Source of the DNA: Ligilactobacillus equi DSM 15833 = JCM 10991
GTDB lineage: Bacteria > Bacillota > Bacilli > Lactobacillales > Lactobacillaceae
Length of the DNA stretch: 40,000 nucleotides
Direction of reading: 5' to 3'
Assembly (NCBI RefSeq): GCF_000615765.1
Contig: NZ_BAMI01000012.1
Span: forward strand, 4,009-44,008
Position numbers and translations under genes: made by a program. This document shows, piece after piece, positions 4,865-16,391 of the stretch; position 1 is the first letter of the stretch; each line of letters starts with the position of its first letter. The notes beneath the pieces are model-generated. The model made no database searches, was not told where the DNA came from, and saw nothing but the letters and a program-made list of their open reading frames with translations.

Positions 4865-5362
4865 ATGAGTTATTCTACTAAAACCACTTATGTACAAGGC
4901 AATTTTTCAGTTGTCCCTAAACAAGAAAAAGAGATGGCACTTTTTAACTTATATTATAAAGATACATTAATTGGTATCTTTGACAACGATGGTTATGTTC
5001 AAAAACTCAATACGACAGACTTTGATTTTTCAGCTGAGCAGACAGGAAAAATCTTAGAATTTGCAACAGAAGCCATTGACGACTATAATTCCAATTCGGA
5101 GCTAACGTATGACGGTTTTAAACGTTTAGCGGAAGAGTTAGGCTTTGAGTGTTATGGTGATGAGCGTATCTGTAGTTTAGCTAATGTTAATGGAAAAATA
5201 TGCATTATTAGCAAAATTACACCTTATGCATTTAGTACTATGCGCTTAGGATTTGAGTTGCTAACAAATGAGCAAAAAGAAAAAGTTATGGATTTAGCCC
5301 GAAAACTGGCACAAACTCCTTTAGAAAGAAGGTATGTTTTTGGAAAAGCTCAAGAAAATTAA
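4865..5362 (+). CDS. hypothetical protein
   Basis: 165-aa ORF with a GAGGTG RBS. No motif recognised. Confidence 0.4.
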   Translation: MSYSTKTTYVQGNFSVVPKQEKEMALFNLYYKDTLIGIFDNDGYVQKLNTTDFDFSAEQTGKILEFATEAIDDYNSNSELTYDGFKRLAEELGFECYGDERICSLANVNGKICIISKITPYAFSTMRLGFELLTNEQKEKVMDLARKLAQTPLERRYVFGKAQEN

Positions 5363-6089
5363 AGAGTTACTAAATGAAAAGCAGTTAATCGGATTGTTTT
5401 TGACTGGTTCAACGCTTTACAACGCAAAGTTAGATGATAACCAAGAAACTGACTACATTGCAGTAGTTGCAGATGTACCGCAAGACTTCTTAACTGGGAA
5501 ATTCGTTTCTGAACAGTTGATTGAAGGGGATGTAGACATTAAGATTTACTCTTTCAGGCAATTCGTACAATTAGTTCTCAAAGGTAATCCTAATATTTTA
5601 GAGTTGTTTGTTGATAAATCGTGCTTGTTGTATGCAACAGATCAGTTCAAAGGCTTTTATGATGAACTAATTGAGTTCGTCTTTGAAATGGCAAGAGGAA
5701 AGTTGTTAAAAGCTCTTTTAGGTATGACTTTTAGCAATTTAAAACGAATTAAAAATAGCCAAGATAAAACTGGTAAAGCTGTATTTAGTGTGTTGAAAAA
5801 TATTCAGTACATTAATCAAATTACAACTAACGGGAAAATCATTAGCGTTGATTTCTCAAATATCAAAAATGTTAAGCAAAAAGAAAAATGGACTGTTAAA
5901 GAAATTGATGACTTAGAAAAGCAGATTGAACAAGCTAAGCAGTCATGTAATTCAGCTATGGAAAAATTAGAATATAACTCTGATTTGGTAGATAAGTTCA
6001 ATATCATGAGCTTTAAGTTTCTGCAAACAGAAGTAGTACCTACTTTTTATGTGCAAATGAGAAGGCAATGTTGCAGCATTTTTATCTAA
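5334..6089 (+). CDS. hypothetical protein, weak similarity to predicted nucleotidyltransferases
   Basis: 251-aa ORF overlapping the upstream gene by 29 nt. The N-terminal LFLTGSTLYNAKLDDNQETDYIAVV resembles the G-S ... D-x-D minimal NTase fold motif. Assignment is tentative. Confidence 0.35.
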   Translation: MFLEKLKKIKELLNEKQLIGLFLTGSTLYNAKLDDNQETDYIAVVADVPQDFLTGKFVSEQLIEGDVDIKIYSFRQFVQLVLKGNPNILELFVDKSCLLYATDQFKGFYDELIEFVFEMARGKLLKALLGMTFSNLKRIKNSQDKTGKAVFSVLKNIQYINQITTNGKIISVDFSNIKNVKQKEKWTVKEIDDLEKQIEQAKQSCNSAMEKLEYNSDLVDKFNIMSFKFLQTEVVPTFYVQMRRQCCSIFI

Positions 6090-6186
6090 AGAAGACGCTT
6101 TAAAGTCTAGCGAAGAAACTAAGAAATTACTTAAAAGTAAGGACGATATTTCTGAATATCAAGTCAACGTTTACGAGTTTGATTCG

Positions 6187-6341
6187 TGATGTTCTGATGT
6201 ATTGGTGAGATGATGATTATCGGGATGCTTCCGGTGTTACCTACTATGTGCAGGCGTGACTTGTCTGTGTAGGTGTTGCTCTAGTGAAAACAACAGTGAT
6301 ACTTTTTCCTTTCTGTTTCCCTATGTATGTAGGGGGGTCTT
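6187..6341 (+). repeat. cluster of decayed type I-E CRISPR-repeat-like units upstream of cas8e
   Basis: Best unit is 6314-6341, TGTTTCCCTATGTATGTAGGGGGGTCTT, against consensus GTGTTCCCTACGTATGTAGGGGTAATCC. A second unit is 6234-6261 (GTGTTACCTACTATGTGCAGGCGTGACT). A third is ~6254-6281 (..CTTGTCTGTGTAGGTGTTGCTC), which resembles the decayed terminal repeat of array 1. A weak unit lies at ~6187-6214. The 32 nt between 6282 and 6313 are spacer-sized. Confidence 0.5.
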
Positions 6342-6371
6342 TGCAAAGTATTTAATACTTTTGGAGATGAT

Positions 6372-6503
6372 GTGAAAGAAAAGATTAAAGACTTGCCAAA
6401 ATTAACAATCGTTAAAATCAGATCATACAATTACTGCTCAAAAGTTGCAAAAAATGGAACTTTAGCACAACTAACCAAATTGCAAAATGCTGCTAAATAT
6501 TAG
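6372..6503 (+). CDS. 43-aa mini-ORF (VKEKIKDLPKLTIVKIRSYNYCSKVAKNGTLAQLTKLQNAAKY)
   Basis: GTG start 6 nt after a GGAG. It is followed by a terminator hairpin and lies between the decayed repeats and cas8e. Too short for the ORF track. Confidence 0.3.
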   Translation: MKEKIKDLPKLTIVKIRSYNYCSKVAKNGTLAQLTKLQNAAKY

Positions 6504-6524
6504 GCAGATTTTGCACTACAATAA

Positions 6525-6579
6525 ATACCCCCTTAACCTAATAATGGTGTACACATTACAGGTAAGGGGGTATTTTTTC
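6525..6579 (+). terminator. rho-independent terminator
   Basis: 11-bp stem ATACCCCCTTA / TAAGGGGGTAT (6525-6535 / 6563-6573) followed by TTTTTT. The loop is long, about 27 nt. Confidence 0.5.
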
Positions 6580-6865
6580 GCAATTTTACGGCTTAGTTTT
6601 ATTATACACGTTTCTCATATTTTAGTCAAAGACAGATGGCAGAGTATTCCTCGTTTATTTTTCACCTAAAACAATAAGTATATCGCTTATATCACTTGCT
6701 TTTTTATCAATAAATTCGACAGAAACAATCGTATAAAAAACGACAACTTTCCTTGGATTTTTCTGCTAATTTTTCTTGAAAAATATACAAAAAGGAGTTA
6801 TCATAATTACATAATTAATAAACGACGTAAACATCGTAAAAAATACGAAAATGAGGTGATGCATA

Positions 6866-8653
6866 GTGGACAAAACCTTTCAAAAGAAGTCTTTTAATCT
6901 AGTTACTGATAACTGGATAAATGTGTTAAATGGGGATTTCGAAATCGAAACAATTAGCTTAAAAGATTTTTTTACACACGCTAAGGATTATATTTCACTA
7001 GCAGGAGAATCAGAAGCACAAAATCTTTCAGTTTTACGTTTTCTGTTAGCTATCATGCACAAGACTTATTCTATCGAAAATGAAGTAAGCCCTACTGATA
7101 ACAAAGAACAAATTGAAAAAGCGGCTCTTAATAAATGGAAACAAATTTACAAGAACTATCGTGCTGATGAAGTGGTAGCTTATTTAGAAGAAAACCAAGC
7201 TAGTTTTGACTTGTTTGGAGATAAGCCTTTCTACCAAGTAACTAGAACTCAATACAATGAGTTAGTTCCAGATAACAAGCAAATCAATGCTAAGAAATTA
7301 AAAGATCTTAATAACAGAGCAAATGATAGTGTGGCTGTAACTGGGACAATTACGGTTAAGCAATTTAAACGTACTATTTCTGAAAGTAGTAATACTCCTA
7401 ATTTATTTGCTTTAGAAAGTGAACGCTACAAGAATAAAATTACATTTGATGAATTAGCTCGCTGGTTAATTAGTTTCCAAGGTTATACAGCCACGTCTGA
7501 CAAAACAGCCATTAAGAACAAAGAAAAATTTAGTAAGTCTCCGGGTTGGCTGTTTAAAATTAATCCTGTTTTTGCAGTAGGGGATGATATGTTTGACACA
7601 CTCATGCTTAATTTAAAACTTGATAGCCCTAATAAGCAAAAACCCGTTTGGGAATATGATAACCCACTAGCTTATATTGATAAGCTTAGAACGCTAGATA
7701 AGCCTAATAATATCACTGAATTATATACAAATTTATCTCGTGCGGTATGTATTGAATGGGATGATTTTGGACGTCCTGCAATCTTCTCAGCAGGGTTACC
7801 ACAATTTGATTCAGCTGATTATTACAACGTAGAGCCTATGACAAGCTGGCGTGTTCTTAAAAAAGATATTGTCTTACCAAATACCAAAAAGCCTGATGAA
7901 TTTACCACAGCCTTATGGCGAAGTATTGGAGAATTCATTCCATTACCACACGTTGAAATTCAAGACGGCACCAAAGACAATTCTAAAAAGAGAAAGTCTC
8001 CTAAAACTAAAAAACCATTACGAGAAACACCTAACGTTGGACTCATGGAGTGGTTAACTTTACTTCGAAATAACAGCATTACAGAGTCAATCTTGACAAA
8101 TAAAACATTGACTTTGAAGAATGTATTGCTACTTAAAAGCCAACAAGCAGACGGCTTGCCAGTAGATGATTTCAATGATTCTTTTGATTTCAATGCAGAC
8201 CTACTTGTCCCAACTGATTCTGACTCTAGTGATTTAGCACATGGTGATGTGAAGTTCTTAATTGCTGATGCTTTAGAACGAATCCGTTTAGTTCACAATG
8301 CTTTAGCGCTAGCAGCTAAAGATATTGCTGAACTACGCTATGGGGAAAAAGGGCAAAACAACTCGAAGTTTGTTAATGAGCAAGTTAAGAGTCTTTATAA
8401 CAAGTTAGATGATAGCTTTAATGAATGGTTTAGTTCCATTGACCCAACAGGTGATTTAGTAGAAAAATCTGACGAGTTAAATGAAGTCCTACGTAAAATT
8501 ACATACAACTTTAAGTCTAAGTTGTATGTAAGTGCTTCTAGCAAAGAAATCAATGGTACTACGGTTGAAACTAAAGCTGGAAAGACCGTCAACAAAAACA
8601 TTTATACTGTTCTTAATTCATTTGATTTTAAAATTAGAAATATTTTGAGGTGA
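6866..8653 (+). CDS. cas8e: Cas8e (Cse1/CasA), type I-E Cascade large subunit
   Basis: 595-aa ORF with a GTG start after a GAGGTGA RBS. The N-terminal FNLVTDNWINV matches the conserved Cse1 N-terminus (E. coli NLLIDNWIPV). First gene of a cas11-cas7-cas5-cas6e series. Confidence 0.88.
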   Translation: MDKTFQKKSFNLVTDNWINVLNGDFEIETISLKDFFTHAKDYISLAGESEAQNLSVLRFLLAIMHKTYSIENEVSPTDNKEQIEKAALNKWKQIYKNYRADEVVAYLEENQASFDLFGDKPFYQVTRTQYNELVPDNKQINAKKLKDLNNRANDSVAVTGTITVKQFKRTISESSNTPNLFALESERYKNKITFDELARWLISFQGYTATSDKTAIKNKEKFSKSPGWLFKINPVFAVGDDMFDTLMLNLKLDSPNKQKPVWEYDNPLAYIDKLRTLDKPNNITELYTNLSRAVCIEWDDFGRPAIFSAGLPQFDSADYYNVEPMTSWRVLKKDIVLPNTKKPDEFTTALWRSIGEFIPLPHVEIQDGTKDNSKKRKSPKTKKPLRETPNVGLMEWLTLLRNNSITESILTNKTLTLKNVLLLKSQQADGLPVDDFNDSFDFNADLLVPTDSDSSDLAHGDVKFLIADALERIRLVHNALALAAKDIAELRYGEKGQNNSKFVNEQVKSLYNKLDDSFNEWFSSIDPTGDLVEKSDELNEVLRKITYNFKSKLYVSASSKEINGTTVETKAGKTVNKNIYTVLNSFDFKIRNILR

Positions 8654-9600: not shown

Positions 9601-10641
9601 ATGACACTATATTTAGATTTATCTGTAATCCAAACTGTTCCATCTGCAAACATCAATCGGGATGAAGTAGGCGCTCCTAAGAAAGCATATTACGGTGGCG
9701 TTTTACGTTCACGTGTATCTTCTCAAGCATGGAAACACGCTATTAGAGAAGATTTTGCTAAAGCTAATGTTGATACCGCATATCGTACTAAGTTAGTTCC
9801 TAAAAAGTTAGCCAAGCTATTACAAGCTAAAAATGGTGATTTATCTGATGAAGAAGCTATGGAATTATCTGTTGCTACTTTAACAAAGGCTAAGATTTCA
9901 GTTACTAAAGACAATGAATTAAGTGCCTTAATGTTTATTAGCAAGGGCCAACTTGAAAAGCTTGCTGATTACGTTTTGGAAAACAAGGAATTAAATGAAG
10001 ATCAGTTAAAAGTGATTTTACAATCTAACAATTCTGCTGATTTAGCCTTATTTGGTCGTATGGTAGCAAGTGATCCTACGCTTTCTGTTGATGCATCTGT
10101 GCAAGTGGCCCACACGATTTCAACTCATGAAATTGTACCTGAATTTGACTACTACACCGCTTTAGATGACTTAAAGACAAGTGCAGGGGCGGCAATGGTA
10201 GGGACTACTGAATATAACTCTGCAACGCTTTTCCGCTATGCAAATATCAATTTAGATGAATTATTGCACAACTTAGGCGACAAGAACATTACTCTTGATT
10301 CAGCAACTCAATTTATCAAGTCATTTATTAGCTCAATGCCTACTGGATACCAAAATGCTTTTGCTAACAAGACTATCCCTGAATATGTAATGCTCACACT
10401 ACGTAATGATACTCCGGTTAACTTGGTATCTGCTTTTGAAGAACCTGTTCAATCAACTAGTGGTTTTTCTCGTAAATCAGTAGAGCAGCTTGAAAAAGAA
10501 TACAAGAATACACTTAAATTCTTAGATGAACCAGTAGCAAACTTTGTATTAAGCAAGTATGACTCATCGTTAGAAGAACAAGTAAATAATCTTGCTGACC
10601 TGTTAGATAAAGTAAAGGATTCCTTTGTAAAGTTGGTGTAA
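9601..10641 (+). CDS. cas7: Cas7e (Cse4/CasC), Cascade backbone subunit
   Basis: 346-aa ORF. N-terminal LSVIQTVPSANINRDEVGAPKKAYYGGVLRSRVSSQAWKHAIR matches the CasC hallmark (N-x-N-R-D ... G-x-P-K ... R-x-R-x-S-S-Q). Confidence 0.92.
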   Translation: MTLYLDLSVIQTVPSANINRDEVGAPKKAYYGGVLRSRVSSQAWKHAIREDFAKANVDTAYRTKLVPKKLAKLLQAKNGDLSDEEAMELSVATLTKAKISVTKDNELSALMFISKGQLEKLADYVLENKELNEDQLKVILQSNNSADLALFGRMVASDPTLSVDASVQVAHTISTHEIVPEFDYYTALDDLKTSAGAAMVGTTEYNSATLFRYANINLDELLHNLGDKNITLDSATQFIKSFISSMPTGYQNAFANKTIPEYVMLTLRNDTPVNLVSAFEEPVQSTSGFSRKSVEQLEKEYKNTLKFLDEPVANFVLSKYDSSLEEQVNNLADLLDKVKDSFVKLV

Positions 10642-10644
10642 GTT

Positions 10645-11400
10645 ATGCGGACATTAACAATTAGACTAACTGGTGTTTTTCAATCTTACGGTGGAGAAAC
10701 AAATTTTTCTAGGAGAGGAACTAAGCCTTATCCTACAAAAAGTTCAATCATTGGAATGATTGCCGCTTCTCTTGGCTACAGACGTGATGACGATGCACAA
10801 ATCAACGAATTAAATAAATTGAATTATGCTGTTCGAATCGAGCAACTTGGCGATGTAACAACTGATTTCCATATTGTTCATTATGAAGGATACATCACTG
10901 GTAATAGGGGCCAGGTTAGCGGTTCTAAAATCACTTATCGAGACTATTTGCAAGATACAGTATTTTTAGTTGCTATTAGCAGTGAAGATGATGAGTTAAT
11001 TAATACAATTCGTCATTCACTAGCTCATCCCAAATTTCAACTATTTCTCGGTCGACGAGCAAGTGCTCCGGCAGGCGTTTTAAAGACAAGTATTTTTCCA
11101 AATATGACACCAATTCAGGTCTTAGAAAATGAGTCTTGGCAAGCAGCAGATTGGTATAAAAAACGTTTGAGAAAGTCTGAAGTAGCCTTAAAAATAGTAG
11201 CTGATGTTCAACTACTAAAAGGGCAGAAATACAAAATTTCTAGAGATACAGTTATCTCATTTTCTGAAAAAAAGCGAAAACATGGTTATCGAGGAATTGC
11301 AACTAAAACTGTTAAAGTTGCTAATGATAAGTATGTTGCTACTTCAACAAAGCATGATCCGTTATCGTTTTTTGAAACTGAAGTAATCGCGACAAAGTGA
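10645..11400 (+). CDS. cas5: Cas5e (CasD)
   Basis: 251-aa ORF. N-terminal LTIRLTGVFQSYGGETNFSRRGTKPYPTKSSIIGMIAASLGYRRDD matches the CasD pattern (L-x-G-P-x-Q-S-W-G ... R-x-T ... P-T-K-S ... G-L-x-A-A-A-L-G). Confidence 0.9.
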   Translation: MRTLTIRLTGVFQSYGGETNFSRRGTKPYPTKSSIIGMIAASLGYRRDDDAQINELNKLNYAVRIEQLGDVTTDFHIVHYEGYITGNRGQVSGSKITYRDYLQDTVFLVAISSEDDELINTIRHSLAHPKFQLFLGRRASAPAGVLKTSIFPNMTPIQVLENESWQAADWYKKRLRKSEVALKIVADVQLLKGQKYKISRDTVISFSEKKRKHGYRGIATKTVKVANDKYVATSTKHDPLSFFETEVIATK

Positions 11401-11436: not shown

Positions 11437-11908
11437 GCATTCCCTACGTATGTAGGGGTGAACCTCAAGGTCTAAGAAAAGACCGACGCTATAAAACGCA
11501 TTCCCTACGTATGTAGGGGTGATCCTGACAGTCATACTAAAAGTTATAGAAGGGAGGGGCATTCCCTACGTATGTAGGGGTAATCCTGCTGAGTACATTA
11601 TTGAACAAGTTGATGAAGGAAATTTCCTACGTATGTAGGGGTAATCCTATCACTCCTGCAGCGGTTCATAATTTCAAGGAGTAGTCCCCACGTATGTAGG
11701 GGTGATCCTGCTGTGTTAATACTGGGGGAAACTGCAGATTCAGTTGTTCCCTATGTATGTAGGTGTGGCTCTATCGGCTTTTTGCGTGTTTCTTAAATGA
11801 TGTTCCCTACTGTTATGGGTGTTTTCCTGTATGTGTCTTCCTGTGTTCAAGGGCGATATTAGCTTGTATATTTGAAAGTTGTTTCCTACTTTTATTGTAG
11901 GAGTTTTA
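11437..11908 (+). CRISPR. CRISPR array 1 (type I-E repeat), located between cas5 and cas6e
   Basis: Six 28-nt repeats start at 11437, 11498, 11559, 11620, 11681 and 11744 (GCATTCCCTACGTATGTAGGGGTGAWCC). Period is 61 nt and spacers are 33 nt, the last 35. Decayed repeat-like units follow at ~11799-11828 and 11881-11908. Palindromic core is CCCTAC-GTAT-GTAGGG. Orientation is the same as the E. coli I-E repeat. Confidence 0.9.
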
Positions 11909-11923
11909 TAGAAAGGAAAAATT

Positions 11924-12541
11924 ATGTATTATTTATCACGAGTAGAAATTAACAATAAGAATGCAAAAGAAATTAAAGAATTCAACCACTTAGGTGCTTA
12001 CCATAATTGGGTAGAGCAAATGTTTCCTGAAAATATTGAAAATGGTGTTCGCCCACGTCATTTATGGCGTATTGATATCTTAAATGGTGTAAAATATCTA
12101 TTAGTACTAAGTGAAGAAAAACCTGATTTGGATATTTTAGAAAGTCATGGTATAAAAGGAACTGGAATTATTAAGGAATATGATAAGTTGCTAGACACCA
12201 TTAAAATAGATTCAGTATTAAAGTTTCGCTTAACAGCCAATCCTGTACGCCAATTTAATGGAAAAGCATATCCTCACGTTACCGTAAAACAACAAAGAAA
12301 GTGGTTGTTAGATAGAGCTGAAGCTAACGGCTTTACGTTAGATGATAATTACTTTACAATCGTTAGTCGTGATTATGTTCCATTAAAACGGAAAAATAGC
12401 AGAGGTTGCAATTTAAGTCGGGTATCTTTTGAAGGTATTTTAAAGGTAACTGATGTTGATAGCTTTAAAGATATATTAGTTAATGGCTTAGGGAGAGAAA
12501 AGGCGTTTGGTATGGGACTCATGACTGTTGTCCCATTTTAG
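11924..12541 (+). CDS. cas6: Cas6e (CasE) crRNA endoribonuclease
   Basis: 205-aa ORF with a GAAAGGA RBS. N-terminal MYYLSRVEIN and C-terminal GLGREKAFGMGLMTVVPF match CasE hallmarks (M-Y-L-S-R ... G-I-G-R-A-K-A-F-G-C-G-L-L). Confidence 0.9.
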   Translation: MYYLSRVEINNKNAKEIKEFNHLGAYHNWVEQMFPENIENGVRPRHLWRIDILNGVKYLLVLSEEKPDLDILESHGIKGTGIIKEYDKLLDTIKIDSVLKFRLTANPVRQFNGKAYPHVTVKQQRKWLLDRAEANGFTLDDNYFTIVSRDYVPLKRKNSRGCNLSRVSFEGILKVTDVDSFKDILVNGLGREKAFGMGLMTVVPF

Positions 12542-12604: not shown

Positions 12605-13364
12605 GTGTTCCCTACGTATGTAGGGGTAATCCCGTCCAAGCTTATCTTGAAATGCCTTAGCTGCTGTGTTCCCTACGTATGTAGGGGTAATCCCTCAAGC
12701 TGGTCTTCCTCGAGCGCCCTTTTTTCGTGTTCCCTACGTATGTAGGGGTAATCCTAAAAGTGGCCACGGAGGATTAGGCGGTAATAAGTGTTCCCTACGT
12801 ATGTAGGGGTGAACCTTCTCGTTTTGCTGGTGGGGCGGACATGGGTTCGTGTTCCCTACGTATGTAGGGGTGAACCTTAAAGGTTGGGAAGAAGAACTAA
12901 GGACGGGAAGTGTTCCCTACGTATGTGGGGGTGAACCTGCAAATGTCCCTGCTCGTCCAAAAGACGCCCAGTGTTCCCTACGTATGTAGGGGTAATCCTA
13001 TATATACATTCAAACCTTGATATTAGCAATTGTGTTCCCTACGTATGTAGGGGTAATCCTGGTGCAGCTGACAAGACTAACCAAGTTAAGACGTGTTCCC
13101 TATGTATGTAGGGGTGAGCCTGATTAGTAATGGTATCTTGGTTGCTCTTGATAGGTGTTCCCTACGTATATGGGGGGTGAGCCTATATGTTCAAACCTTG
13201 ATATAGCAAGTAGTGTTCCCCACGTACGTGGAGGTGATTCCGTAGGTGAGGGTAAACCTGTAACACCGGGGTGTACGTTTCTTATTCCCTATGCTTGTAG
13301 GTGTGAACCCATAGATACTATGGATACTATATTTTCTTGTTCCCTATTTATGTAGGTGTGAGTC
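12605..13364 (+). CRISPR. CRISPR array 2 (type I-E), 13 repeats / 12 spacers
   Basis: Repeats start at 12605, 12666, 12727, 12788, 12849, 12910, 12971, 13032, 13093, 13155, 13213, 13282 and 13337. Consensus is GTGTTCCCTACGTATGTAGGGGTAATCC. The first nine sit on an exact 61-nt period. The last four are decayed, and the last four spacers are irregular (34, 29, 41 and 27 nt). Confidence 0.95.
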
Positions 13365-13407
13365 TGTAGAAGTTATTGAGGTTATCCAAAATTAAATAAG
13401 TAGTGCA

Positions 13408-14508: not shown

Positions 14509-14710
14509 AGTAATGAAAGATGGTGATATGGTGAAGCACTATGGTCGTCATAAGGATAATCATTATTACAAGGGAATTAAAAATATTTTCTACCGAAAGC
14601 AGCATAGTTCCTGCGAAACTAAAAAGATACAGTATGCGACTAAACTGGATGCACTTATCGATATATCAGCGATACAGTACCAGAAAAAGAAAAACCGATG
14701 TCAACAGTAA
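14486..14710 (+). pseudogene. 5' part of a small gene apparently interrupted by the IscB element
   Basis: 74-aa ORF (likely start MKDGDMVKHY at 14513) that stops exactly where the structured omega-RNA region begins. A start-less C-terminal fragment in the same orientation lies at 16455-16571. Confidence 0.3.
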
Positions 14711-15040
14711 CCCCTCTATTCACTGAAGTAAGGGGCTTGAAATGAAAGTTTTAAGTCTGCTCACTTTGATGAGGATTCTGGAGCAATTCAGAATTTGTTG
14801 TCTAGACTAAGCAATCAGCTTCGGCTGATTGGAAAACTACGTTATTTTAGTCATCATACCTTATGAATGATACCCTAGTTTTAAGCTCTATGGAGGATAG
14901 TAAACAAGGATAAGGTTAATGTCCTAGTCGGCCCCTCATAACAAGCTAAAATAACATTGTCGAAGGGTAACCACATGTAACTGTTAGTTCTCTGATAGTT
15001 GCGTGATAAGGTACATGCTACCTTATAAAAAATGAAAGGA
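14711..15040 (+). ncRNA. putative IscB omega-RNA scaffold (guide expected at or just upstream of the 5' edge)
   Basis: 340-nt ORF-free gap directly upstream of iscB on the same strand. Stable hairpins: CCCCT..AGGGG (14711-14735), ATTCTG..CAGAAT (14775-14794), CAATCAGC-TTCG-GCTGATTG with a UUCG tetraloop (14812-14831), and ATAAGGTA-CATGC-TACCTTAT (15006-15026) abutting the RBS. IscB omega-RNAs are known to be encoded in exactly this position. Confidence 0.6.
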
Positions 15041-15050
15041 GAAAATCAAA

Positions 15051-16391
15051 ATGCAAAATCGAGTTTTTGTCATTAATAAACATGGTGAAGCTTTAATGCC
15101 TTGCAAACCGAGAACTGCTAGAAAATTATTACAAAGTGGCAAGGCTAAGCCTATTAAGAAAGAACCATTCACCATTCAACTATTGTACGGTGCAAGTGGT
15201 TATAAGCAACCTATTAACTTAGGTGTTGATAGCGGGCAACGTCACATTGGGCTTGCGGTAACAAGTCAAGATAAAGTTTTATTTCAAAGCGAAGTCGAAT
15301 TGCGCCAAGACGTTAAGAAACTTCTTGAAAGAAGAAAAACTTATCGTCAAGGTAGACGGAACCGTAAGACACGTTACCGTCCAATGCGTTTTTTAAATCG
15401 CATCAAAAGTAGAAAAAATAACTGGTTGCCACCGTCGGTACAAAGTAAAGTTAATCACAACATTAATTGGATTAAACGCATGTTAACGGTGTTACCAAAC
15501 CCTGAATTACACATCGAAGTTGGTAAATTCGATATGCAAAAAATGAAAGACCCTGCCATTAAAGGTGAAGGTTATCAAAAAGGGGACTTGTACGGCTATC
15601 AAACGGTTAAGCAATACGTCTTAGCTCGTGACCAATATAAATGCCAAGTCTGCAAGAAAAAAGGCGGTAAGTATAAAGGAAAAATCGTTAAACTCAAAAT
15701 TCACCACATTATTTACCGCTCACAGGGTGGTACCAATGCCCCTGCTAACTTAATTACCGTTTGTGCTGATTGCCACACTTATCAAAATCATCAACCAGGT
15801 GGCATCTTATATGCCTGGTATCAGAAGAAAAAGAAAGTAACTAAGCCTTTGAAAGGCGCAACCTTTATGAATATTCTCCGTAGGAGATTATGGAATGCCT
15901 TTCCTGATGCCAAGTTCCAGTATGGGGCGCAAACCACTTTACAACGGGCAAATTTAGGCTTGGCAAAATCGCACTACAATGATGCCGTTACAATTAGTGG
16001 TATTGAACATATTAGTGAAAAGCCAACAAGTATCGTGATGTTTAAACAATTTCGCAAGAAAAAGCGTTTCTTACACGAAGCAACCGCACGCAAAGGATGT
16101 AAAGACAAGGAAGGGCACAGAAACAAGAATGTCACCAGTAAACGGAATGCCAAAAACACCAAAGAAGCAAACGGCTTTTGGCTTAATGATTATGTCAGAA
16201 TCAAGAACAGTAAACTTAAAGGCTACATTAGTGGCTTTACAGGGAGTTCCTGTTATATCAAGGATTGTCTTGGCAATTATCTGACTCTTAATACGTACAA
16301 GCAAACAAACTTGTCTAATGTTGAATTTATTAATCATAGAAATAATTGGTGTAATACCAGTATTTCCGAACAAAGATACGTTATGGAATAA
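15051..16391 (+). CDS. iscB: IscB, RNA-guided RuvC/HNH nuclease (Cas9 ancestor family)
   Basis: 446 aa. PLMP domain (KHGEALMPCKPRTARKLL). RuvC-I (LGVDSGQRHIGLAV). Arg-rich bridge helix (RRKTYRQGRRNRKTRYRPMRF). RuvC-II (ELHIEVGKFD). HNH (CQVCKKKG ... IHHIIYRSQGGTNAPANLITVCADCH). RuvC-III (KSHYNDAVTI). C-terminal TID-like domain. AAAGGAG RBS. Confidence 0.87.
   Translation: MQNRVFVINKHGEALMPCKPRTARKLLQSGKAKPIKKEPFTIQLLYGASGYKQPINLGVDSGQRHIGLAVTSQDKVLFQSEVELRQDVKKLLERRKTYRQGRRNRKTRYRPMRFLNRIKSRKNNWLPPSVQSKVNHNINWIKRMLTVLPNPELHIEVGKFDMQKMKDPAIKGEGYQKGDLYGYQTVKQYVLARDQYKCQVCKKKGGKYKGKIVKLKIHHIIYRSQGGTNAPANLITVCADCHTYQNHQPGGILYAWYQKKKKVTKPLKGATFMNILRRRLWNAFPDAKFQYGAQTTLQRANLGLAKSHYNDAVTISGIEHISEKPTSIVMFKQFRKKKRFLHEATARKGCKDKEGHRNKNVTSKRNAKNTKEANGFWLNDYVRIKNSKLKGYISGFTGSSCYIKDCLGNYLTLNTYKQTNLSNVEFINHRNNWCNTSISEQRYVME

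Follow-up and report, generated by a model that had tools for sequence, protein, structure and literature searches.

A degenerate repeat cluster upstream of a Cas3-less type I-E Cascade operon in Ligilactobacillus equi is probably a fragment of a decayed CRISPR array

Results

Organization of the locus

Does a cluster of degenerate CRISPR repeats located upstream of a type I-E Cascade operon in Ligilactobacillus equi DSM 15833 encode a guide RNA for that Cascade, or is it what remains of a former array? Stand-alone repeats and mini-arrays upstream of cas8e have already been described and are common, with regulatory mini-arrays present at this position in ~19% of bacterial I-E loci (PMC10120712). 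The original prediction for the cluster proposed a CreTA-like addiction or autoregulatory module, and named as alternatives an RNA anti-CRISPR and the fossil of a deleted array or cas3 region.

The window that we analyzed is a stretch of 40,000 nucleotides (contig C147:4009-44008) from an assembly of 158 contigs and 2.24 Mb that is 89% complete. This stretch is identical across three independent type-strain assemblies, including GCA_001435735.1 (AZFH01000155) and two independent read sets, and this agreement indicates that the repeat cluster is not an assembly artefact. The relevant features are listed below in window coordinates, except for array A.

C147:1-480, array A, at the start of the contig
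5334-6189, + strand, RlaP-like nucleotidyltransferase gene (Pfam PF10127), broken in the type strain
6205-6401, no strand assigned, strain-specific segment that is unalignable with strain DPC 6820 and has flanks that are 94-99% identical
6234-6261, + strand, repeat-like unit 1, an almost complete repeat that lacks 1 nt and whose stem has decayed
6262-6282, + strand, repeat-like unit 2, corresponding to the 3′ two-thirds of a repeat and terminating with the 5′-handle-like GTTGCTCT
6283-6313, + strand, pseudo-spacer, 31 nt if the repeat is taken as 29 nt, or 32 nt from 6282
6314-6341, + strand, repeat-like unit 3 (psiR2), TGTTTCCCTATGTATGTAGGGGGGTCTT, with an exact 17-nt repeat core
6372-6503, + strand, 43-codon frame with a GTG start and GGAG 5 nt upstream of it
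6402-6431, + strand, promoter-like TTAACA-18-TACAAT inside the 43-codon frame (TTACCA-18-TACAAT in DPC 6820)
6523-6578, + strand, intrinsic terminator, a long hairpin (6523-6575) followed by a T-run
6776-6804, + strand, best Cascade promoter candidate, TTGAAA-17-TATCAT, where the pseudo-spacer has no match
6866-8653, + strand, cse1 (Pfam PF09481, E = 9e-57)
between cse1 and cse2, small ORF of 74-77 aa
8977-9585, cse2
9601-10641, cas7
10645-11400, cas5
11437-11830, array B
11924-12541, cas6e
12605-13370, array C

The type I-E Cascade of this element is encoded without cas3, cas1 or cas2, and tblastn searches with the chromosomal Cas3, Cas1 and Cas2 as queries gave no trace of any of the three genes on contig C147. 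We therefore rejected a fossil of cas3, so that of the proposed "fossil of a deleted array or cas3 region" only the array tail is retained. The assembly has only one cas3, which is part of another, complete I-E locus on contig C117; the repeat of that locus (GTGTTCCCCGTGTGTACGGGGGTGATCC) is different, with a stem unlike that of the element's own repeat. This chromosomal locus spans C117:106-9426, from cas3 to cas2, and its cas7 is split into two ORFs of 168 and 189 aa, such that the chromosomal I-E system may be broken. The window also contains, at 14703-16391, an IscB gene (NF040563, E = 8e-110) that is immediately preceded by a HEARO/omega RNA (Rfam RF02033, 91 bits).

The three units resemble the repeats of the neighboring arrays

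The consensus repeat of arrays B and C, GTGTTCCCTACGTATGTAGGG/GTGAACCT, is 29 nt long and separates spacers of 32 nt. If the enzyme acts as E. coli Cas6e does, such a repeat would be cut after G21, giving a 5′ handle of 8 nt and a 3′ hairpin of 21 nt. Judged by their sequences, all three units of the cluster are derived from this repeat. The 5′ part of unit 1 (6234-6244, GTGTTACCTAC) is identical to the 5′ end of the repeat at 10 of 11 positions, where 0.26 such matches are expected per window, and nucleotides 6268-6282 (TGTAGGTGTTGCTCT) agree with the penultimate repeat of array B at 14 of 15 positions (0.02 expected per window). The 17-nt core of unit 3 is found genome-wide in the arrays, in unit 3 itself, at one solitary site on contig C140 and nowhere else, with a count of 0 for the reversed-pattern control. 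Moreover, the units share one strand, the repeat family of the locus and the register of an array, and their trailer-type degeneration matches that of the long, irregular stretches in which arrays A to C end, with the G21-to-T variant and the GGCTCT-type ends in common.

These comparisons bear out the predicted repeat origin of the units, which had been placed at 6234-6261, ~6254-6281 and 6314-6341, and correct their layout. Units 1 and 2 adjoin without an intervening spacer or, alternatively, represent a single repeat in which the loop is enlarged from 4 to 24 nt. Indeed, the fused units (psiR1) fold as a single hairpin with the basal stem ACCUAC/GUAGGU, in which pairing is kept via an A-U pair. 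Since the psiR1 stem-loop is either disrupted or expanded to a 24-nt loop, 5′ processing at this site is uncertain. The Cas6e hairpin of psiR2 is intact and folds like a canonical repeat (6319-6324 pairs with 6329-6334), and the sequence 3′ of the expected cleavage site is decayed. The segment between the last two units, which had been described as spacer-sized, measures 31-32 nt. Positions 6254 and 6314 are 60-61 nt apart, and between the end of unit 2 and psiR2 a register of 61 nt has been maintained. The best-preserved parts of this psi-unit are those that a mature crRNA would keep, namely the first 21 nt of psiR2, in which the hairpin lies, and the 8-nt handle GTTGCTCT, which is identical at 7 of 8 positions to GTGGCTCT, the handle of a mid-array repeat.

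The psi-unit has no leader or promoter of its own

The sequence upstream of 6234 does not contain TTGNCAAATCAATGTTTNTTTAG, the leader motif common to arrays A, B and C, as is expected for a tail fragment, and this absence indicates that the psi-unit is not an active array. No + strand promoter-like site was found within 6100-6340 and no terminator between the upstream genes and the psi-unit, so that transcription, if it occurs, would be read-through from the upstream + strand genes. A search of 6000-7000 against Rfam revealed no known RNA family. The psi-unit is situated ~525 bp before cse1, on the 5′ side of the terminator that lies between it and the Cascade promoter. As originally predicted, this terminator is strong, consisting of a hairpin and T-run at 6523-6578; it ends the upstream transcription unit before the Cascade promoter, whose candidate at 6776-6804 sits on its 3′ side.

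The pseudo-spacer lacks a PAM-flanked target near the Cascade operon

The target preference of the element's Cascade could be read from its arrays. Five spacers of arrays A to C have perfect or near-perfect matches on other contigs of the same genome, and the 5′ flanks of these protospacers are AAC, AAT, AAG, AAT and AAT (n = 5), which defines the PAM as AA-N. An AA-N PAM agrees with other Lactobacillales I-E systems. The protospacers are located on contigs C127, C124 and C106, and two of them (C127:1645-1677 and C127:1953-1984) lie inside a RepA_N/Bac_RepA_C replication-initiator gene. Sequence matches of this kind suggest that the cas3-less Cascade is used for nuclease-free silencing between plasmids, which would explain why matches to the same genome are tolerated.

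For the pseudo-spacer, no AA-flanked seed of at least 8 nt is present in 6342-6900 with any guide start from 6255 to 6300, nor anywhere on contig C147. The seed alignment against 6340-6870 and the rest of the replicon that had been suggested with the original prediction thus yielded no AA-flanked seed of this length. When the PAM was ignored, the best local partial match was no better than chance, being reached by 63% of shuffled spacers. The hexamer GTGAAA common to the pseudo-spacer and the start of the 43-codon frame, which had been called weak evidence from the outset, is likewise at chance level. Genome-wide, a single AA-flanked seed was found (AAT followed by 11 nt, inside atpB on contig C91), and matches of this type are at chance, with 0.96-1.4 expected and 51-66% of shuffles producing one.

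No full or near-full protospacer of the pseudo-spacer is present in the genome or in the phage and plasmid collections, and no target is present in locus L049 of the sister strain DPC 6820. The pseudo-spacer also has no kin among the 41 real spacers (similarity p = 0.155, where the repeat core alone aligns). On this ground, we rejected the possibility that the unit is a recent copy of another array tail.

The sister strain carries a near-identical Cascade operon but no psi-unit

Strain DPC 6820 (AWWH01000158, locus L049) provided the only relative across the collections searched. Searches for further close relatives of Cse1 were negative in viral and genome contigs, in 400 genomes from the family (best match, 41% identity) and among 5.8 billion proteins (best, 36%), and exact-pattern scans of metagenome and genome contigs gave no hit. 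The Cse1 proteins of the two strains are 99.0% identical (590/595 aa), and the promoter region corresponding to 6402-6865 is 95.7% identical. DPC 6820 has no repeat unit upstream of cse1. In this comparison of two strains, DPC 6820 carries, in place of 6205-6401, ~380 unrelated bp with an intact DUF4325/STAS-like gene (127 aa, Pfam E = 5e-5). The Cascade operon thus occurs in near-identical form in a strain that has no psi-unit.

The upstream RlaP-like gene also differs between the strains. A 29-bp deletion after 6058 causes a frameshift in the type strain, where the match is split over two frames. The DPC 6820 gene is intact (294 aa) and is followed by the DUF4325/STAS-like gene. The two genes may form a module that is decaying in the type strain.

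The arrays of the element differ as well. The spacer TAAAGGTTGGGAAGAAGAACTAAGGACGGGAA is part of array C here (12878-12909) and of array B in DPC 6820 (L049:14662-14693), which shows that arrays on the element recombine. The leader-proximal spacers differ between the two strains and, together with the swapped spacer, this indicates that the arrays still turn over without cas1-cas2 nearby.

The 43-codon frame is probably not a gene

The GGAG-GTG frame of 43 codons to which the original prediction pointed does exist, but its candidacy as a toxin gene does not hold up in DPC 6820, where the frame is open and no ATG, GTG or TTG occurs before the last few codons. In the type strain, the first 10 codons lie inside the strain-specific segment. 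The encoded peptide is Lys-rich and not hydrophobic, has no match in Pfam or NCBIfam, and is specified without a tandem rare-codon motif of the CreT kind. We conclude that the frame is probably not a gene. Tentatively, it can be regarded as a leftover of the DUF4325 gene region: the two share a look-alike region around the ribosome binding site (22/27 nt) and the peptide segments KEKIKD/QEEIKG, where the alignment is not significant (p = 0.15-0.27).

RNA encoded by 6436-6582 is predicted to fold with -49.3 kcal/mol (z = -7). Two sets of signals in this region may, on sequence grounds, correspond to unannotated small RNAs. One is 6402-6582, where the conserved promoter-like TTAACA-18-TACAAT is followed by ~140 structured nt (three hairpins, z = -7) that end at the terminator. 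The other is a near-consensus TTGACT-17-TATAAT on the minus strand (6629-6601), which is directed into the same terminator hairpin.

Discussion

A decayed array fragment as the favored explanation

The most likely explanation, in our assessment, is that 6234-6341 is a decayed, leaderless fragment of a type I-E array of the element's own repeat family. Such a fragment would comprise two degenerate repeats joined to each other, a single old spacer and a terminal repeat. It would be lodged in the strain-specific stretch that is bounded on one side by the frameshifted RlaP-like gene and on the other by what is left of the 3′ region of a lost DUF4325 gene, and recombination or deletion would have brought it there. 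The decayed trailers of arrays A to C offer a close comparison: they share with the psi-unit the repeat family, GTAGGT and GGCTCT ends, stem-loop indels and irregular spacer lengths (26-40 nt in those tails). Unlike these trailers, the fragment is detached from any array or leader, and its spacer and flanks are unrelated to theirs. Presumed read-through from the upstream + strand genes would be its only source of transcription; Cas6e could still cut the psiR2 hairpin in such an RNA, and the resulting orphan guide-like RNA would regulate nothing in particular. The 43-codon frame would then be an accidental or remnant ORF rather than a toxin gene. There are observations that sit less easily with a relic: the parts retained in a crRNA are the best preserved, the 61-nt register is kept, the psiR1 basal stem still pairs, and the position upstream of cas8e is one at which ~19% of bacterial I-E loci have regulatory mini-arrays.

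Alternative functions for the psi-unit

The same preserved parts are a reason to consider a working guide. In this scenario, Cas6e would process read-through RNA at two sites, the fused psiR1 and psiR2, to give a one-spacer crRNA-like guide, which would load into the nuclease-free Cascade and silence a target outside the available sequences, such as an unsampled plasmid or phage or a short-seed host site. The handle and hairpin are preserved in register, the assembly is 89% complete, and the Cascade carries guides against co-resident replicons, including the RepA_N gene, which makes repression-type targeting plausible. The preservation of the crRNA-retained parts, together with the evident tolerance and use of guides against co-resident replicons, keeps a functional reading alive. 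We nevertheless consider it unlikely, given that no full or near-full protospacer exists in the genome, phages or plasmids, that the sole AA-flanked 11-nt seed is the atpB site matched by 51-66% of shuffles, that the psiR1 stem-loop is disrupted or expanded, and that the unit is absent from DPC 6820. A particular form of this scenario, in which a guide of a plasmid-borne, repression-only Cascade is released from the 3′ UTR of the upstream operon and acts through a short PAM-flanked seed on a host or co-resident gene, for example atpB on contig C91, appears highly improbable. If true, the psi-unit would be an element-encoded crRNA-like regulator of host physiology.

The anatomy of the psi-unit and its position upstream of cas8e match those of published I-E regulatory mini-arrays (10.1101/2023.03.10.532045; PMC10120712), which raises the possibility of a CreR-type unit that steers Cascade to its own promoter for autorepression. 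Like the mini-arrays surveyed by Shmakov et al., 2023 (PMC10120712), the cluster has two to three repeat-like units and one spacer-sized segment, lies outside the arrays with a long gap before cas8e, lacks a leader, and is sporadic rather than conserved among close relatives. The psiR1-psiS-psiR2 layout upstream of casA/cas8e is also that of the S. enterica CreR described by Liu et al. (10.1101/2023.03.10.532045), in which the best-preserved parts are the 8-nt handle of psiR1 and the 3′-handle hairpin of psiR2; here the psiR2 hairpin is intact and the psiR1 handle is identical at 7 of 8 positions, with a psiR1 stem-loop that is disrupted or expanded. The I-E mini-arrays of the survey have PAM-flanked seed matches in the cas8 promoter (PMC10120712), and the S. 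enterica CreR shares 15 consecutive nt with an AAG-flanked site ~140 bp upstream of casA (10.1101/2023.03.10.532045), whereas here no AA-flanked seed of at least 8 nt occurs anywhere in the upstream region. We rejected a self-target of the CreR kind after seed scans in both registers and from guide starts 6255-6300, with and without the PAM, gave nothing above shuffles. In addition, no target of any kind was found, cas3 is wholly absent from the locus, and the downstream rather than the upstream repeat is the better kept, in contrast to the I-E cases of the survey (PMC10120712). A strong terminator separates the unit from the Cascade promoter, and DPC 6820 has the same operon, with its 95.7%-identical promoter region, without the unit. 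Autorepression by the psi-unit is therefore very unlikely.

Addiction of the CreTA kind fares worst among the functions considered. CreTA is a CRISPR-repressed toxin-antitoxin RNA pair, classed as type VIII toxin-antitoxin. Applied to this locus, the guide and Cascade would repress a toxin of 6342-6579, either the 43-aa ORF or an RNA. As in the type I-B CreTA of Haloarcula hispanica, a degenerate mini-CRISPR adjoins a small cassette with a Shine-Dalgarno sequence, here a mini-array beside a small ORF that has an SD-like GGAG and is followed by a terminator, and RNA from 6436-6582 is predicted to be strongly structured. Unlike in H. hispanica, the pseudo-spacer is not complementary to the cassette promoter and matches 6342-6579 only in the chance hexamer GTGAAA, CreT-like features are missing, and the candidate ORF has no counterpart ORF in the sister strain, where the start codon is missing. 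The peptide, being Lys-rich and non-hydrophobic, with no family match and no CreT-type tandem rare codons, does not resemble such a toxin. DPC 6820 keeps the 3′ two-thirds of the cassette with neither the guide nor a translatable ORF, which means that this strain tolerates the cassette unrepressed. Repression of a local toxin is thus scarcely credible. The CreTA-like or autoregulatory module of the original prediction, which the anatomy resembles, consequently lacks its defining functional features, as the unit has no PAM-flanked target and is not conserved, and the ORF lacks a start in DPC 6820; the fossil reading fits better than the CreTA/CreR-type reading.

A further alternative is that the cluster is a decoy, or Racr-like sponge, that titrates Cas6e or Cascade subunits. 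Solitary repeats on mobile elements are reported to be able to serve as RNA anti-CRISPRs (PMC10651486), and psiR2 is a near-perfect Cas6e hairpin without a usable downstream handle. However, the repeat that it mimics is the element's own rather than that of the chromosomal I-E system (GTGTTCCCCGTGTGTACGGGGGTGATCC), the search for a promoter of the unit gave none, and the sister strain lacks the unit. Because its own system's repeat is mimicked and no promoter-like site lies upstream, the anti-CRISPR suggestion was set aside, and we regard a decoy as exceedingly improbable.

Significance of the cluster and its context

Type III mini-arrays that are not conserved and have no target have been read as degraded, non-functional repeats (PMC10120712). 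As a decayed array fragment, the psi-unit alone matters little, being one more sporadic decayed repeat cluster at a cas locus. It can nevertheless serve as a negative control for CreR and CreTA calls, because it has the right anatomy and position and yet has no target and is not conserved. The greater value lies in its context, a Cas3-less Cascade whose arrays have perfect PAM-flanked matches to a replication-initiator gene on a co-resident, plasmid-like contig.

The solitary repeat of the same family on contig C140 (TTATTCCCTACGTATGTAGGTGG, C140:33140-33170, locus L014) has a promoter-like TTGCAC-16-TATACA upstream and a hairpin with a T-run downstream. With these signals, it is a candidate gene for a small RNA, of either the Racr or the crRNA-like type.
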